Assembly (NCBI GenBank): GCA_965218975.1
Contig: OZ244717.1
Span: forward strand, 1,440,001-1,504,000
Length of the DNA stretch: 64,000 bases
Origin: Candidatus Oxydemutatoraceae bacterium
GTDB taxonomy: Bacteria; Pseudomonadota; Gammaproteobacteria; Poriferisulfidales; Oxydemutatoraceae
Direction: 5' to 3'
The notes under the pieces were generated by a model. The model made no database searches and was not told where the DNA came from. It was given only the letters and a program-made list of their open reading frames with translations. Shown in pieces: positions 55,453 through 61,763 of this stretch; position 1 is the first letter of the stretch, and every line of letters starts with the position of its first letter. The position numbers were made by a program, and so were the translations under genes.

Positions 55453-56433
55453 TTATTTCAACAAATTGATTATTGCAGCACGTTCTTCTTGTAGTTCTTT
55501 TTCACTAATTTTTAGCATTTCCTGAGAATAAGTATCTAGTGTTAAGTTAGAGACAGTTTGATAGGCGTTTCGTAACGTTGTGACCGGGTATGAAAAAACA
55601 ATATCGGAATCGATACCATAACTGCCGTCGGACAGGATACCCATACTAGTCCAATCATTTGCACGGGTGCCGTTACGCAAGAGCTTCACATGGTCAATAA
55701 TCGCATTGGCAGCAGATGCTGCCGATGATTTTCCGCGTGCTTCGATTACTTGCACTCCACGTTGTTGAACATGTGGAACGAATATCTCGCTTCGCCAATT
55801 ATCCTCAAGCAATTCAATTACCGGACGGTCGTTAACTCTGCAATGTTGTATGTCAGGAAATTGAGTTGCCGAGTGATTGCCCCAAACGGTAAGCTGACGT
55901 ACTGCATTAGTACTACACTTTAAATGCTTTGCCAGTATCGATATTGCGCGATTATGATCAAGGCGCAGTAAGCAAGAAAATGATGTTGGCGGCAAATCTT
56001 TTGCCGCTTTGATTGCAACTAAAGTATTGGTATTGGCTGGGTTTCCAACAATAACGACACGCACATCGCGCGAAGCGCTTTCATTTAAAGCACACCCTTG
56101 ATATTGGAATATTTTGCTATTGATACGTAACAAATCTTTGCGTTCCATTCCTTGGCTACGTGGTTTTGCTCCAATCAGAAGTGCGTAATCAACATCTTGG
56201 AATCCTCGTGCCGGATCTAGGGTATAGCTCATCTTATGCAGATTTTGAAACGCACAGTCTTCCAGCTCCATCATTACTCCTGCAATAGCTTTCTCGGAGC
56301 TTTTTACTTCTACGAAACGAAGTTCAACAGATTGGTTGGGACCAAACATATCCCCCGCGGCAATACGAAATGCCAGAGCATAACCTACATTACCGGCCGA
56401 ACCGGTAATCGCAACTTTAACGGGGTTTTTCAT
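55453..56433 (-). CDS. mdh: malate dehydrogenase (type 2)
   Basis: VAITGSAGNVGY, MELEDCAF, VGNPANTN, RLDHNRA, WGNHS. Confidence 0.97.
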   Translation of the reverse strand: MKNPVKVAITGSAGNVGYALAFRIAAGDMFGPNQSVELRFVEVKSSEKAIAGVMMELEDCAFQNLHKMSYTLDPARGFQDVDYALLIGAKPRSQGMERKDLLRINSKIFQYQGCALNESASRDVRVVIVGNPANTNTLVAIKAAKDLPPTSFSCLLRLDHNRAISILAKHLKCSTNAVRQLTVWGNHSATQFPDIQHCRVNDRPVIELLEDNWRSEIFVPHVQQRGVQVIEARGKSSAASAANAIIDHVKLLRNGTRANDWTSMGILSDGSYGIDSDIVFSYPVTTLRNAYQTVSNLTLDTYSQEMLKISEKELQEERAAIINLLK

Positions 56434-56459
56434 TATGAGCTTCCTATTATGAGCTTCCT
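56432..56459. repeat. 14-bp perfect tandem duplication over the mdh ribosome-binding site
   Basis: ATTATGAGCTTCCT twice (56432-56445 and 56446-56459); the minus strand reads AGGAAGCTCATAAT twice, running into the ATG. Confidence 0.9.
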
Positions 56460-56758
56460 GTTGAAACCGAACTATATAACTTTTGTTACATTAAGTGCCT
56501 TATTGTACTTCCATCAACTGACTTTTAGCATGTCGGAATTTACGGTTTGGATATTACCTTGCCAGTGCAATTGATTAAGTTTGTGCTAGTGGAGTAAATC
56601 AGCGTGACTTGGCTAATACAAAATTAGTTTATCATATTGATAAAACGATTGTACGATGCCACTCTAAATGGGATTTTTGAAGGGCTTCGGAGGAAGCGTT
56701 CGGCAGTAACATTCGGGTCGATGCTTTCTGTCCGTTGCCGGCATGAGGACGGTGCAGG

Positions 56759-56808
56759 GTGAGACGCGCCCGGAAAGCTGAGCATTCGCCAACAAACACA
56801 AAACGGTT
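56759..56808 (+). mobile_element. short, internally deleted copy A of a CAGG-targeting miniature element
   Basis: Begins GTGAGACGCGCCCGGAAA after CAGG and ends AACAAACACAAAACGGTT; absent from IS copy 2, which has TTATATCAGGTTAAATACTC here. Confidence 0.8.
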
Positions 56809-57016
56809 CCATAACCGATCATTGAATGCTTCCATATCGGTAAATAGCAGGTTTTCCGCATGATCGATACAATCCTCCTGGACGGTACGGTTGAAGCGCT
56901 TGATGTGCGCATTCATTTTTGGACACTTGGGATAGGTCAGCCACTGCTCAATCACAGGTGATTCCCGGATGAGCCGGGCAAACTGTCCTTGAAACTCACT
57001 ACCGCCGTCCGTCAGG

Positions 57017-57162
57017 GTGAGACGCGCCCGGAAAACCGACTGGTTTTCAGCGGCGAACGACCCGACAAGGATGTCGGGGCTGGCGCTCATTGACAAAACC
57101 AAGTCTCGTCATGGACGACAGGCACTTTGCCGACAATCCGGCAGCAAACACAAAATGGTTTC
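57017..57162 (+). mobile_element. copy B of the CAGG-targeting miniature element (146 bp)
   Basis: Begins GTGAGACGCGCCCGGAAAACC after CAGG, where IS copy 2 reads CAGG-ATATAT; chain of hairpins; about 30 unassigned bases follow. Confidence 0.85.
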
Positions 57163-57506
57163 ATCAGCTCAAAGACTTTACTGCTGCCGAAATTCTGCTA
57201 GGCGCAGGAATGCGGCTGCGTTGCGGCTGTTACAGCGGTTGGTTGCCACTGCTATTGCCATTCGGGTATAGACATCAATGGCCGTTAAGACGTAGCGGCG
57301 CACTCTGTGCTGATCACGCACAATCGTATCCAGGGCGATGCAATGCCCCGGGTACTGTGCTTTGAAGTGTTTCGGCTTGCGTGCCTTGCAACGGCGCTTA
57401 AACGGTCGTTTTGTTTGTCCTTTGGCATTCAGCCGCTGCGGAATACAGCGCATTTTATCCGGTGCATCCGCGATCAGGCGCGCAATCGTGCGGACGCTCG
57501 GGCAGG

Positions 57507-57648
57507 GTGAGACGCGCCCGGAAAACCGATTTTCAGCGGCGAACGACCCGACAAGGACGTCAAGGCTGGGGTTCATTCGCAGAACCAAGTTTCGTCACGG
57601 ACGGCAGGCACTTTGCCGACAATCTGGCAACAAGCGCAAAACGGTTTC
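57507..57648 (+). mobile_element. copy C of the CAGG-targeting miniature element (142 bp)
   Basis: Colinear with copy B (about 16 substitutions and one 4-bp indel by eye); again directly after CAGG. Confidence 0.85.
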
Positions 57649-58222
57649 GTGCTGAATCGGTTGCGGCCAGATCCGCTGGCGCCTCTTACGCGGCGCTTTG
57701 CTGCGATCATGTAAGGCGCTGAGGCCAGTGCAGCGATAACGCCGGCGCCAGCGGTACAAAGTACTGCGACCGATCTTGAATGCGTTCGGGAGTTACAACC
57801 CTCCCAAAATGAGGGCATCATATTTCTGTTGAGCCGTTGTGTTCATAATAGTCTTTATTTTTGAAGCAAAATTGGCTATTTTATAGAAACCTTTGATGCG
57901 GTGGCCGATGTGCTGATATTGCATATCGGTCACTTTTTTGAGTCGTGCCGTGAATCCCACATGTATCTGGCACTGTACACATTGTGTACGTGTCCAATAC
58001 ATTTGATGGTTAAACTCACCGATATCTTCAAGCGATGCTTTTTTCCAAGAAGAGGAGATAAATTCTTCCATAAAAAATTCAGAACGTATTGACATCGCGC
58101 ATGGCATCTTAATCTCTTGAATATGGTATATTATTAGCATTTTAAAAATTGAAGTCGGGAAGTTTAGCTAGTTAATATACAAATAGTTTATTCCCGCATT
58201 TTAATACGGTTATTCAAAAGCA

Positions 58223-60673: not shown

Positions 60674-60749
<76 letters not shown>

Positions 60750-60777
60750 ACATAACTTCCTAGGCCATCTAAGGACT

Positions 60778-61395
60778 TGTACGATGCCACCCTAAATGGG
60801 ATTCTTAAAGGGCTTCGGGGGAAGCGTTCGGCAAGCAACATTCGGATCGGTGCTTTCTGTCCATTGCCGGCATGAGGGCGGTGCAGGTTATATCAGGTTA
60901 AATACTCCCATAACCGGTCATTGAATGCTTCCGTATCGGCGAATAGCAGGTCTTCTGTATGATCGATACAATCTTCTTGGTGCGCGTTCATTTTCGGACA
61001 CTTGGGATAGGCCAGCCACTGCTCAATCGCGGGTGATTCCCGGATGAGCCGGGCAAACTGTCCTTGAAACTCACTACCGCCGTCCGTCAGGATATATTTT
61101 ACCGGTTGCGGCCAGATCCGCTGGCGCCTCTTACGCGGCGCTTTGCTGCGATCATGCAAGGCGCTGAGGCCAGTGTACTGCGACCGACCTTGAATGCGTT
61201 CGGGAGTTACAACCCTCCCAAAATAATAGGGCATCATATTTCTGTTGAGCCATTGTGTTCATAATAGCCTCTATTTTTGAAGCAAAATTGGCTATTTTAT
61301 AGAAACCTTTGATGCGGTGGCCGATGTGCTGATATTGCATATCGGTTACCTTTTTGAGTCGTGCCGTGAATCCCACATGTATCTGGCGCTGTAGC
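60778..61395 (-). mobile_element. IS481-family insertion sequence, internally deleted copy 2
   Basis: Homologous to 56650-57979 from TGTACGATGCCAC to ATCTGGCGCTGTA; several internal deletions; starts 28 bp after tRNA-Ala. Confidence 0.9.
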
Positions 61396-61763
61396 TTTGG
61401 GAGTAAAGAACAGCTTAAAACCTGAATCTCTACCAGAGAATGCTGATAGTTCGTTTCGCATGTCTGAGTTGGATCCAGATAAGGCAGCAAATTTACAGGT
61501 GCCAGGTGAATCCATACCAGAGGTTGATGACTTGGATGTTGAGTCAGAGGTTAATGAGGGTCGGCGATAGAATTGAAACGACTGATTCTTTTATTCAAAT
61601 TTTGGAGGAAGAGGGTAAGCCTATGAGTGCCCAAGAATTAAAACACCGCTTATCTGAAATCAAGGGAGTTTCAGAAAACATGCAGATACACGGAAATGAA
61701 CGTTTGATCGCAGTTGGCCCAAACTTATGGGGGCTAAGTGATTGGGGGCTATTCCTAGAATGA
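61396..61763 (+). pseudogene. gene remnant: acidic linker plus C-terminal winged-helix-like segment
   Basis: One frame gives ..PESLPENADSSFRMSELDPD..EVDDLDVESEVNEGRR*, another gives DSFIQILEEEGKPMSAQELKHRL...VGPNLWGLSDWG. The 5' end abuts the IS. Confidence 0.5.

Follow-up and report, generated by a model that had tools for sequence, protein, structure and literature searches.

A hairpin-rich repeat with one sharp end, joined to GG-ending targets, in the IS481 copies of an Oxydemutatoraceae genome

Within the window, the whole stretch of 64,000 nucleotides that was analysed, a decayed IS481 copy is interrupted three times by a non-autonomous, structured and hairpin-rich repeat unit of about 135 nt. 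BLAST with the insert sequence against the whole genome detected about 300 copies of this hairpin repeat, and 297 of the 324 matches start at base 1 of the element; position -2 is occupied by G in 291 of these 297 copies, and position -1 in 289. Inheritance and unequal crossing-over inflate many of the counts, and the independent insertion events may number only some 20 to 30. After collapsing, 31 distinct upstream contexts remain, with G at -2 in 28 and at -1 in 29, against a GG background frequency of 5.2%, and 19 of them carry the word CAGG. The 5' flanks tabulated from the genome are thus not random, and the start at base 1 together with the GG context is far beyond chance. The junctions show that each new copy has its first base (GTGAG...) joined to a target ending in GG, (G)CAGG being preferred. 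This supports the core of the original prediction, a non-autonomous, hairpin-rich repeat whose one sharp end abuts NNGG (mostly CAGG).

The host of the three inserts, IS481 copy 1 (56650..57981, transposase reading on the minus strand), was located by tblastn with two intact homologues, P0002 and P0004. It opens with TGTACGATGCC from 56650, and a similar sequence is found in reverse complement up to 57981. Its matches to NF033577 (57187-57783 and 56809-57024) are all under the cut-off; genome-wide, the DDE transposase profiles that define the IS481 family (NF033577/rve) gave 118 fragment matches, none of them over the cut-off. The interrupted copy is 36 to 37% identical to the intact homologues, and an uninterrupted segment of 107 amino acids reaches 58%. 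A second copy, internally deleted (IS481 copy 2, 60777..61397, minus strand), retains two of the insertion sites in the empty state.

Direct reading of copy 1 confirmed that three inserts in the same orientation, hereafter A, B and C, open with GTGAGACGCG immediately 3' of CAGG: GTGAGACGCGCCCGGAAA stands at 56759, 57017 and 57507, always on the plus strand, and is preceded by CAGG at 56755..56758, 57013..57016 and 57503..57506. The 3' ends read AAAACGGTT for A and C and AAAATGGTT for B. In a repeat search of the window, the junctions formed one repeat family, B and C being 85% identical over 124 nt. Copy 2 was found, as claimed, to hold the corresponding empty sites with CAGG in the target, GGTGCAGG-TTATAT for A (60880-60893, CAGG at 60884-60887) and CGTCAGG-ATATAT for B (61085-61097, CAGG at 61088-61091). 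Comparison with the empty sites also bore out that A, B and C have neither a target duplication nor terminal inverted repeats. The motif AAAAYGGTT, proposed as the 3' end of the element, is indeed seen at the inserts; it is partly native IS481, since what directly follows ...AAAAYGG is coding DNA of IS481 that flanks site C, and the real right boundaries lie elsewhere.

At site A, the upstream context is common to 55 genomic copies. Insert A (56759..56808, plus strand) replaces 20 nt of IS481 that are kept in copy 2 (60888-60907) and that belong to a conserved C-terminal transposase motif. The replacement of 20 nt by 50 was thus correctly seen, and the 50-nt insert itself proved to be an internally deleted copy, in which bases 1 to 18 are joined to the last 32 (the BLAST match is split into 1-23 and 19-50); full-length copies occupy site A in other IS copies.

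Insert B is longer. The element proper (57017..57159, plus strand) consists of a 5' core of about 70 nt, with the invariant GTGAGACGCGCCCGG, hairpin P1, CAGCGGCGAACG and hairpin P2 in this order, followed by a 3' half. It continues into native IS481 DNA of the site-C flank (57160..57208, plus strand), a 3' transduction whose sequence is identical to that found 3' of an empty site C at C1:211211, and which encodes NLGSSK.FELMKP, matching ..NLGKEKLHPLLEPFC of the intact homologues. The last 8 to 9 nt of the transduced flank (AGGCGCAGG) are common to the local IS and constitute the right junction. In all, about 45 nt of site-C flank were carried along and 36 to 45 nt of target were replaced: the five empty B sites of the genome read CAGG, CAAG or CAGA, then ATATATTTTACC, and hold a different 36 to 45 nt that code for normal IS481 residues. 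Because B carries flank DNA of site C, the donor of inserts B and A was a copy of the site-C type rather than an unrelated family member. The original prediction had taken B and C for independent arrivals from a diverged genome-wide family; this flank, and the location of almost the whole family in IS481 remnants, contradict it.

The sole empty site C of the genome (C1:211211) reads CAGA in place of CAGG, and comparison with it shows that the foreign part of insert C (57507..57636, plus strand) replaces 17 nt of native sequence. The right junction (57637..57648, plus strand) contains 10 nt (CAAAACGGTT) common to the element end and native IS481. It is followed by a secondary deletion of about 87 nt between short TTTCAT-like repeats, and about 29 transposase residues are absent from copy 1 at this site. 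Loss of target at the far junction, suspected from the start, is therefore supported at all three sites (20 nt at A, 36 to 45 nt at B, 17 nt at C).

Elsewhere in the genome the element forms arrays, which read [1-98]n[full], [1-106][full] and [1-67][full] and show short units, stopped at an internal NNGG, stacked head-to-tail ahead of a full unit. The units end in ATGG (98 nt), CAGG (106), CTGG (67), ACGG (143) or, for units of 197 and 303 nt, at the first CAGG encountered in the flank. Every array unit is thus terminated by NNGG, whereas the right junctions of sites A and C are microhomology joins. Nested self-insertion was rejected as the origin of the arrays because repeated tails are almost absent, just 4 of the 324 matches beginning at position 95 or later. 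The 303-nt unit, made of element bases 1 to 77 and 226 nt of host DNA ending in CGCGCAGG, forms a triplication where a Fic gene begins, at C1:1,034.7-1,035.6 kb. A further copy was found in AT-rich unique DNA at C1:393397, where it follows ...GTAAGG; it begins exactly at an element start and was copied from the [1-67][full] array situated 2.4 kb away. Between two inverted arrays at 149-154 kb, no transposase was seen in the cargo, which, judging by eye, we take to be a nucleotidyltransferase/HEPN-type pair.

The original prediction supposed that the element was visible only in dispensable DNA. It is instead tied to IS481 genome-wide, with nearly all of its copies in some 100 dead IS481 copies rather than in dispensable DNA generally: for 88 of the 98 element clusters, a further IS481 segment lies no more than 600 nt away, and the two 'non-IS' clusters (153 kb and 699 kb) finish with a tail derived from IS481. 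Of the 267 matches whose orientation to the IS could be scored, 263 point the same way as those in the window; the strand chosen within the IS is uninformative, as one strand has eight CAGG words and the other has one. The top strand is on the lagging side in 61 of 97 clusters, a mild bias that is confounded by IS orientation. The diversity of element bases 1 to 67 (0.065) is close to that of IS segments (0.058 to 0.108), which makes the copies no younger than the backbone of the IS, and comparisons of diversity and clustering gave no sign of present-day activity. Nor are the copies grouped by site (0.071 to 0.085 within the A, B and C classes, 0.065 to 0.113 between classes overall). The element was absent from all 40 relatives searched. 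Contigs from four sequencing runs break at IS ends, which is uninformative on mechanism.

Could the element be a mere passenger of IS481? A few entries into a master IS481 would then have been multiplied by IS481 transposition, and the arrays and odd junctions would result from later tandem expansion and deletion, as in a minisatellite. The proximity to IS481 segments, the shared orientation, a diversity equal to that of the backbone and the existence of near-identical tandem units all agree with this scenario, which we nevertheless consider improbable. It would have to accommodate about 25 distinct junction contexts that all end in GG, a copy in unique DNA that starts exactly at the element start, and the site-C flank carried by insert B, which implies a secondary copy event inside the IS. 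Moreover, all four combinations of filled and empty A and B sites are present among 32 IS copies, and in the tree of IS copies, which is mostly star-like, B-empty and B-filled copies share one supported clade. Judged from these occupancy combinations and from the mixed clade, the element was probably gained after the IS copies had diversified. Finally, a mutated GG is seen in 6 of 11 empty sites and in 6 of the filled A and B sites, which number about 90 (Fisher p = 2.5e-4), and this excess at empty sites argues for a sequence-dependent insertion step.

The first 50 nt or so of the element recur in intergenic repeats of Rhodobacterales, which are composed of the exact 20-mer, the covarying hairpin, GTTTTCAGCGNCGAACG and then a second GC-rich hairpin. 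The 5' 20 nt are identical across the two bacterial classes (Alpha- and Gammaproteobacteria), and they are also the least variable part of the element in the genome studied here (pi 0.043). Hairpin P1 is 97.4% paired, with five pairs changed on both sides, values that none of 500 shuffles reached. The GTGAG boundary is the same in Rhodobacterales, and GG precedes 14 of 17 core copies there, in unrelated contexts. Rhodobacter sp. SW2 has 13 core copies, against 0 to 4 in each of 200 further genomes of its order, as counted with a fixed pattern that under-detects copies with a changed stem. A link of the alphaproteobacterial copies to IS481 was rejected, as no IS481 match coincides with a copy of the motif.

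Such conservation could mean that the core works as an RNA or as a regulatory DNA motif bound by a protein, its abundance being a side effect of riding the IS. The covarying hairpin, the single-stranded blocks that are invariant across classes and the intergenic position of the alphaproteobacterial copies point that way, as does a weak resemblance of a Rhodobacter copy to Rfam RF02604, a Brucella sRNA; the latter match, however, is far under threshold (27 bits versus a gathering score of 137). Folds with RNA parameters (z = -2.7 for the plus strand, -2.5 for the minus strand) do not tell the strands apart, and an analysis of wobble pairs in the closing stem, based on one or two subfamily events, favours the plus strand. 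An Rfam search of 56400-58000 with E up to 10 returned nothing relevant, its four weak eukaryotic-type matches lying outside the inserts or being unrelated to them. Copies in the genome studied here are embedded in dead transposase genes, arrayed and truncated, and have no consistent gene neighbour, and we therefore hold a functional role of this kind to be very unlikely.

Our tentative preference, short of an even chance, goes to a non-autonomous repeat that spreads by one-ended, GG-primed copying, with a geometry like that of IS91 and IS801. A single-strand break would leave a 3'-OH after NNGG, which would prime one-ended copying of the donor. The nicking enzyme would recognise the conserved 5' core, and would be one that the genome no longer encodes, or does not encode recognisably. 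IS481 transposition may have aided the spread across the 100 or so IS481 copies, as may gene conversion and unequal crossing-over. The inserts show copying that proceeds rightwards through the element and may run on into the donor flank, with a far junction where incoming DNA and target share 3 to 10 nt and with the intervening target overwritten. A clean rolling-circle insertion should spare the target, and the deletions at A, B and C alike count against our preferred reading.

Left junctions share 2 to 6 nt with the donor flank, and most target sites have 4 to 6 nt in common with the left flank of the donor (GGGCAGG), so that plain microhomology priming explains the 'target preference' equally well. 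A serious rival is a process without a dedicated enzyme, to which we attribute a real if lesser chance: the stable hairpins would stall replication and templates would be switched, by microhomology-mediated fork-stalling or break-induced replication. In this model, a nascent strand with ...CAGG at its 3' end would re-anneal at the CAGG in front of an element elsewhere, copy the element and part of the flank, and go back where microhomology is next met; the remainder would be done by unequal crossing-over and gene conversion between the IS copies. Besides the shared nucleotides at left and right junctions, such a templated patch predicts the loss of target between them, as is observed. Microhomology deletions are abundant in the IS copies, examples being a CGGTTGC junction of 7 nt in copy 2 and, in copy 1, the deletion between TTTCAT repeats. 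The insertion in unique DNA is just 2.4 kb from its donor, and no gene for an enzyme was found in the genome. However, any microhomology should serve in template switching, and yet copies start almost always exactly at base 1; the GTGAG boundary and the preceding GG also recur in distant Rhodobacterales, in unrelated contexts; and the identity and low variability of the 5' 20 nt point to recognition by a protein.

Enzymes were searched for in the genome, a single contig of 99.4% completeness. It has no match to Y1_Tnp (PF01797), to Y2_Tnp (PF04986; its control gave no match anywhere either), to the IS91 transposase (NF033538, a search validated by three matches in MAG G044) or to reverse transcriptase (RVT_1), and profile searches of it for IS110, TnpB (PF07282) and MobA-type and TrwC-type relaxases yielded none. 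A Y1/Y2 HUH, RAYT, IS110 or reverse transcriptase gene bounded by the same ends, as the original prediction envisaged, was thus not found in the genome. As no HUH enzyme is encoded among the families searched (Y1_Tnp, Y2_Tnp/IS91 and two relaxase families), the HUH mechanism, to which the original prediction had likened the insertion, stays an analogy. A link to RAYTs was rejected, Y1_Tnp being present in none of four alphaproteobacterial genomes carrying the motif; Rhodobacter sp. SW2, for its part, has neither Y1 nor IS91 transposases. One core copy in Frigidibacter (n = 1) adjoins the C-terminal remnant of a gene that we take, from its motif, to be RAYT-like. A link to IS91 gained no support from the two IS91-family copies of MAG G044 to which the element was compared, as its ends do not match their flanks.

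The same searches bear on an RNA-mediated scenario, target-primed reverse transcription. A transcript in the transposase sense would end at the reverse complement of the element start, the 3'-OH of CAGG would prime the cDNA, and the variable far end would reflect incomplete reverse transcription or template jumping. The geometry fits (a fixed priming end, a ragged far end, flank carriage, target deletions, partial units head-to-tail), and the element is antisense within a transcribed gene. Against it, the genome has no RVT_1 match, no self-cleaving or other RNA family was matched, and the sole ARAGORN call is a tRNA-Ala at 60674-60749, with no tRNA-like call in the inserts. We tend to dismiss this scenario.

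If an enzyme is responsible, the element would be a bacterial non-autonomous element with rolling-circle-like geometry and no recognisable HUH gene, and overwrite-type insertion is, to our knowledge, outside the textbook repertoire. The invariant 20-nt core and the covarying hairpin, present in two classes, would then be a sequence handle for finding that enzyme. A bolder proposal, which we advance as speculation with small odds, is a selfish class of 'patch-copiers' whose core, common to Alpha- and Gammaproteobacteria, is read by a nickase or a hijacked host enzyme; breakage at (G)CAGG would be followed by one-ended overwriting, and the element would be a hyperparasite that homes to IS481 and inactivates it. 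If no enzyme is involved, the genome offers a clear natural case of structured repeats spreading by templated patches, with a bearing on the rearrangement of repeat-rich symbiont genomes. In both cases, a smaller parasite has riddled some 100 copies of a single insertion sequence, and a plain 'minisatellite' annotation of such arrays can mask insertion events. Our literature searches retrieved no description of the element, which does not amount to its absence from the literature.

Among known systems, MITEs of DDE transposons have terminal inverted repeats and target-site duplications, both of which are absent at A, B and C. IS200/IS605-derived elements have subterminal hairpins at both ends and insert cleanly 3' of a tetranucleotide; the element shares hairpins with them, and differs in overwriting its target and in the lack of a Y1 TnpA or TnpB. 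Group II introns and other retroelements are not indicated, there being no RVT_1 and no relevant Rfam match. The palindromic mosaic repeats of Alphaproteobacteria, among which we would place the Bru-RS-type repeats of Brucella, share the first 50 nt or so; they are low-copy, lie between genes and show no link to IS481. The tandem arrays in dead IS copies, with a hairpin unit of 98 nt, recall the hairpin minisatellites or VNTRs of symbionts; that model fails on the roughly 25 GG-bounded junction types, flank transduction, target replacement and conservation of the core across classes.

REP/BIME sequences and REPINs, which are mobilised by RAYT, a Y1 HUH enzyme (PMC3333891), resemble the element in their short GC-rich hairpins and conserved single-stranded 5' word, and its alphaproteobacterial relatives in their mosaic intergenic arrangement. 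They are short extragenic palindromes, often in inverted pairs, whereas the element is longer, at about 135 nt, and lies inside IS481 coding sequence in polar direct arrays, in a genome without Y1_Tnp. Helitrons (PMC4778049) likewise make no duplication, have a defined 5' end, capture 3' flanks by read-through and bear a hairpin near one end; they are eukaryotic, need a Rep/helicase and have other termini and another target. As for IS91, IS801 and ISCR, the target words of IS91/IS801 listed in PMC3189936 are GAAC, GGAC, CAAG and CGAC. The element differs from them in its NNGG/CAGG word, in overwriting 17 to 45 nt and in residing in a genome without a Y2 HUH transposase. Like this group, it has a fixed end at a conserved target word, lacks terminal inverted repeats and makes no target duplication, and has, like IS91/IS801, a variable other end at a target-like word and carriage of donor flank. 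According to PMC3189936, IS801 can carry flank DNA along, and its miniature derivatives have one fixed end in common and stop at a target-like tetranucleotide; like these derivatives, the element measures a few hundred nucleotides or less and moves without a gene of its own.

The decayed IS481-family insertion sequence at 56650-57981 (copy 1), with its transposase reading on the minus strand, was identified by sequence reading, profile search and homologue comparison. It contains three inserts on the plus strand, A, B and C, starting at 56759, 57017 and 57507; each begins GTGAGACGCGCCCGGAAA directly after CAGG and ends in AAAAYGGTT. The original prediction had placed all three immediately after CAGG, and this proved true: in the internally deleted copy 2 (60777-61397), native sequence comes right after the CAGG of sites A and B. 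Copy 2 lacks its whole middle, with a 7-nt repeat, CGGTTGC, at the deletion junction (61092-61110), one example of the many microhomology deletions among the IS copies. It lies directly downstream of a tRNA-Ala (GGC) gene (60674-60749), which is 28 nt upstream of its end. The window adjoins the maximum of the cumulative GC skew of the whole contig (near 1,500 kb; minimum near 270 kb), from which the replichores appear unequal, at about 1.23 and 0.85 Mb.

The genome, a single 2.081-Mb contig of 47.7% GC, holds about 111 IS481-derived clusters. The IS481 model matches 118 fragments, none at the curated cut-off, so that an intact transposase is no longer present. Of the element's 98 clusters, 88 have a further IS481 segment no more than 600 nt away; among the remaining ten, the clusters at 153 kb and 699 kb finish in a tail that looks, by eye, like the 5' region of IS481 but for a small deletion. 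Relative to the IS, 263 of 267 scorable hits are oriented as in the window, which is uninformative on strand choice, since CAGG occurs eight times on that IS strand and once on the other.

Insert boundaries were set by means of intact homologues (P0002, P0004 and others, with 58% identity to an uninterrupted 107-aa transposase segment) and of insert-free IS copies in the genome. In five copies with an empty site B, CGTCAGG (or CAAG, CAGA) is followed by ATATATTTTACCGG... (36 nt in all), then by AGGCGCAGG joined to AATGCGG; its translation, FLRLTLAVLLQPVKYILTDGGSEF, is colinear with FLDIVQTLFPFPIEHVLTDNGSEF of P0004. In filled sites the native 36 nt are absent, replaced by the element and TTTCATCAGCTCAAAGACTTTACTGCTGCCGAAATTC...AGGCGCAGG. 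The single empty site C, at contig position 211211, identifies TTTCATCAGCTCAAAGACTTTACTGCTGCCGAAATTC...AGGCGCAGG as native IS481 DNA from just past site C, encoding NLGSSK.FELMKPFC, which matches NLGKEKLHPLLEPFC of the homologues. By comparison with empty sites, the foreign element is about 130-135 nt long. The shared ending AAAAYGGTT was indeed seen in all three inserts, but the last 10 nt of the element (CAAAACGGTT) are also native sequence, 17 nt past site C.

Alignment as proposed, here to intact homologues and insert-free IS copies, allowed the losses to be sized. At A, 20 nt coding for part of a conserved C-terminal transposase motif are overwritten, the right junction having a (T/C)CAT microhomology, and the window's insert A is an internal-deletion derivative besides. 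At C, 17 nt are replaced, and the window's copy has lost a further ~87 nt between TTTCAT-like repeats. At B, 36-45 nt are overwritten and the right junction shares 8-9 nt; judged by its sequence, insert B is a copy of a C-type donor and brought along about 45 nt of the donor's flank, ending with the CAGG that comes first downstream. Compared with the empty sites, no duplication was found at any of the three.

With insert B (146 nt) as a BLAST query, the genome gives 324 hits at E <= 1e-5, 162 per strand, and 297 of them start at query base 1. The 3' ends of these 297 cluster at 98 (87 hits), 106 (32), 127 (57) and 146 (78), and they are preceded by G at -2 in 291 cases and at -1 in 289, the preceding word being CAGG in 160 and ATGG in 88. 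Most of the upstream 8-mers are of few kinds, namely the element's own positions 91-98 and 99-106 and a handful of IS481 sites. Searching separately for the first 21 nt, with up to 3 mismatches allowed, gave 304 starts and 31 different upstream contexts; since a few of these are indel variants of one site, about 25 truly differ. G stands at -2 in 28 of the 31 and at -1 in 29, and CAGG in 19, while the genome-wide frequency of GG is 5.2%. The element was found in none of 40 relatives of the same family and order. In many copies (for example, contig 153034-153846) the 3' half, positions ~107-135, contains a variable number of ~10-nt CAATCCGGCA-like repeats, so that copy length varies in the manner of a microsatellite. 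A degenerate copy at contig 405200-405700 (minus strand) has a 24-nt perfect-looking palindrome in the loop of each hairpin (CCTGTCTG...CAGACAGG-like); both palindromes terminate in CAGG and may be a second, still smaller inserted repeat.

The GG is mutated in 6 of 11 empty sites (A 3/5, B 2/5, C 1/1), versus 6 of about 90 filled A and B sites (Fisher p = 2.5e-4), and at a further site, 'U', two of seven empty copies read CAGA. The S2 segment is complete in 32 IS copies, whose A/B states are filled/filled in 23, filled/other in 4, filled/empty in 2, empty/filled in 2 and empty/empty in 1. A clade of 98/97 support holds both B-filled and B-empty copies; as no deletion can bring the native 36 nt back, either insertion or gene conversion continued after the IS copies diverged. 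Three observations count against recent activity: element copies do not group by site, identical 98-nt stretches across loci occur at about chance frequency, and the diversity of bases 1-67 (0.065) is level with the IS backbone's (0.058-0.108). Variation is somewhat lower in the first 20 nt alone (0.043).

Arrays take the forms [1-98]n[full], [1-106][full] and [1-67][full], partial units invariably coming first. Nested insertion at position 98 would leave repeated tails, and these are nearly missing (a start at or beyond position 95 is seen in 4 of 324 hits), which indicates that the partial units themselves were what was added. All units terminate in NNGG: CTGG at 67, ATGG at 98, CAGG at 106 and ACGG at 143; a 197-nt unit terminates where CAGG first occurs in the C flank. 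At 1,034.7-1,035.6 kb of the contig (minus strand), three tandem copies of a 303-nt unit precede the start of a gene that by eye is of the Fic family. This unit joins element bases 1-77 to 226 nt of host DNA including the gene's first 38 nt, and ends CGCGCAGG; promoter region and start codon are thereby triplicated. At 393,397 a [1-67][full] block, its left edge exactly an element start, stands in unique AT-rich DNA after ...GTAAGG and duplicates the block opening an array 2.4 kb off. That the element is a minisatellite and nothing more is improbable, being contradicted by the diverse GG-bounded junctions, the mixed site occupancy and flank transduction. At contig 149100-153900, two inverted arrays, each behind a common ~60-nt non-IS481 'head', surround about 3.3 kb with what looks by eye like a nucleotidyltransferase/HEPN-type gene pair.

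The exact first 20 nt of the element occur at eight genome loci and two metagenome loci elsewhere. At five of the ten (a Rhodobacterales MAG, Frigidibacter, Rhodobacter sp. SW2, Paracoccus and one metagenome contig), what comes next is a hairpin whose sequence differs, then GTTTTCAGCGNCGAACG, then a second GC-rich hairpin. The other five (two Rhizobium, a Proteobacteria MAG, a second locus of the Rhodobacterales MAG and one metagenome contig) resemble chance or terminator matches. With up to 3 mismatches allowed, SW2 gives 13 matches and a reversed control one. Across 22 aligned copies, taken from Alpha- and Gammaproteobacteria, the first hairpin of the core, P1, is 97.4% paired, with 5 of 11 pairs changing on both sides and invariant flanking blocks; none of 500 shuffles reached the observed values. 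Among 201 genomes of the order of SW2, scanned with a fixed pattern to which copies with an altered stem are lost, 29 contain the motif with no more than 2 mismatches; almost every one of these matches is single, and the reversed control likewise gives scattered single matches, so that the motif is sporadic there.

The alphaproteobacterial copies are intergenic mosaics outside IS481, with GG ahead in 14 of 17. Frigidibacter sp. RF13 has the core at L013:2080-2230 and, 1.5 kb from it, another copy in inverted orientation. In the Paracoccus MAG (L025:1350-1520) and a metagenome contig (L020:1900-2170), two tandem copies of a 20-codon ORF (M.EKYKET.LGGLAVNVPNC) flank the core, whose first base touches the start codon of one of them on the opposite strand. 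Rfam RF02604, a Brucella sRNA, is a weak antisense match to one SW2 copy (27 bits, gathering score 137), which may therefore resemble the Bru-RS palindromic repeats. That the element serves purely in regulation or as an RNA is at odds with the contexts of the element in the present genome, and we consider it very unlikely.

How could such junctions be generated? As the sequence shows, copying starts with the element's first base on a 3' end finishing in GG, proceeds 5' to 3' along the element and at times into the donor flank, and closes at NNGG or at a short target homology, the DNA between being overwritten. We tentatively favour a nick-primed, rolling-circle-like process, in which a putative nickase, unrecognised or lost, would recognise the conserved core, because the nearest documented geometry is the one-ended transposition of IS91/IS801. 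The main rival, enzyme-free template switching at a hairpin-rich repeat, is somewhat less likely: it accounts no less well for the microhomologies and for the lost target DNA, but not easily for the invariant start or the conservation of the core across classes.

The original prediction likened the insertions to those of HUH transposases, and suggested looking for a Y1/Y2 HUH, RAYT, IS110 or reverse transcriptase gene; for the families that might account for a fixed tetranucleotide and the lack of duplication, no match was obtained. In this genome, 99.4% complete, Y1_Tnp, RVT_1, IS110, TnpB and MobA-type and TrwC-type relaxases were not found, nor was IS91 (NF033538), in a search validated by matches in another MAG, G044; Y2_Tnp had no match, and the control for that search likewise matched nowhere. 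An RNA-mediated route, having no reverse transcriptase, thus deserves hardly any credence. Y1_Tnp is also absent from four alphaproteobacterial carriers of the core, and the element shares no end similarity with the IS91 copies of G044. In a single case, the Frigidibacter RF13 copy, the core abuts the frameshifted C-terminal third of a gene that we take to be RAYT-like (IS200-like transposase). The first reading therefore holds as an observation, with several details corrected, and HUH transposition serves as an analogy only.

The repeats are real and more structured than 'junk arrays'. Two features of the element are unusual: its insertion overwrites target DNA, and its habitat is the inside of IS481 transposase genes. 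One-ended derivatives of IS91/IS801 have the origin end in common, stop at a target-like tetranucleotide and can mobilise adjacent DNA (PMC3189936). The fixed start, the NNGG-type stops and the carriage of donor flank are alike, whereas the element has no enzyme match in its genome. With its rolling-circle-like geometry and REP-like core, it is best filed among the known non-autonomous repeat elements.
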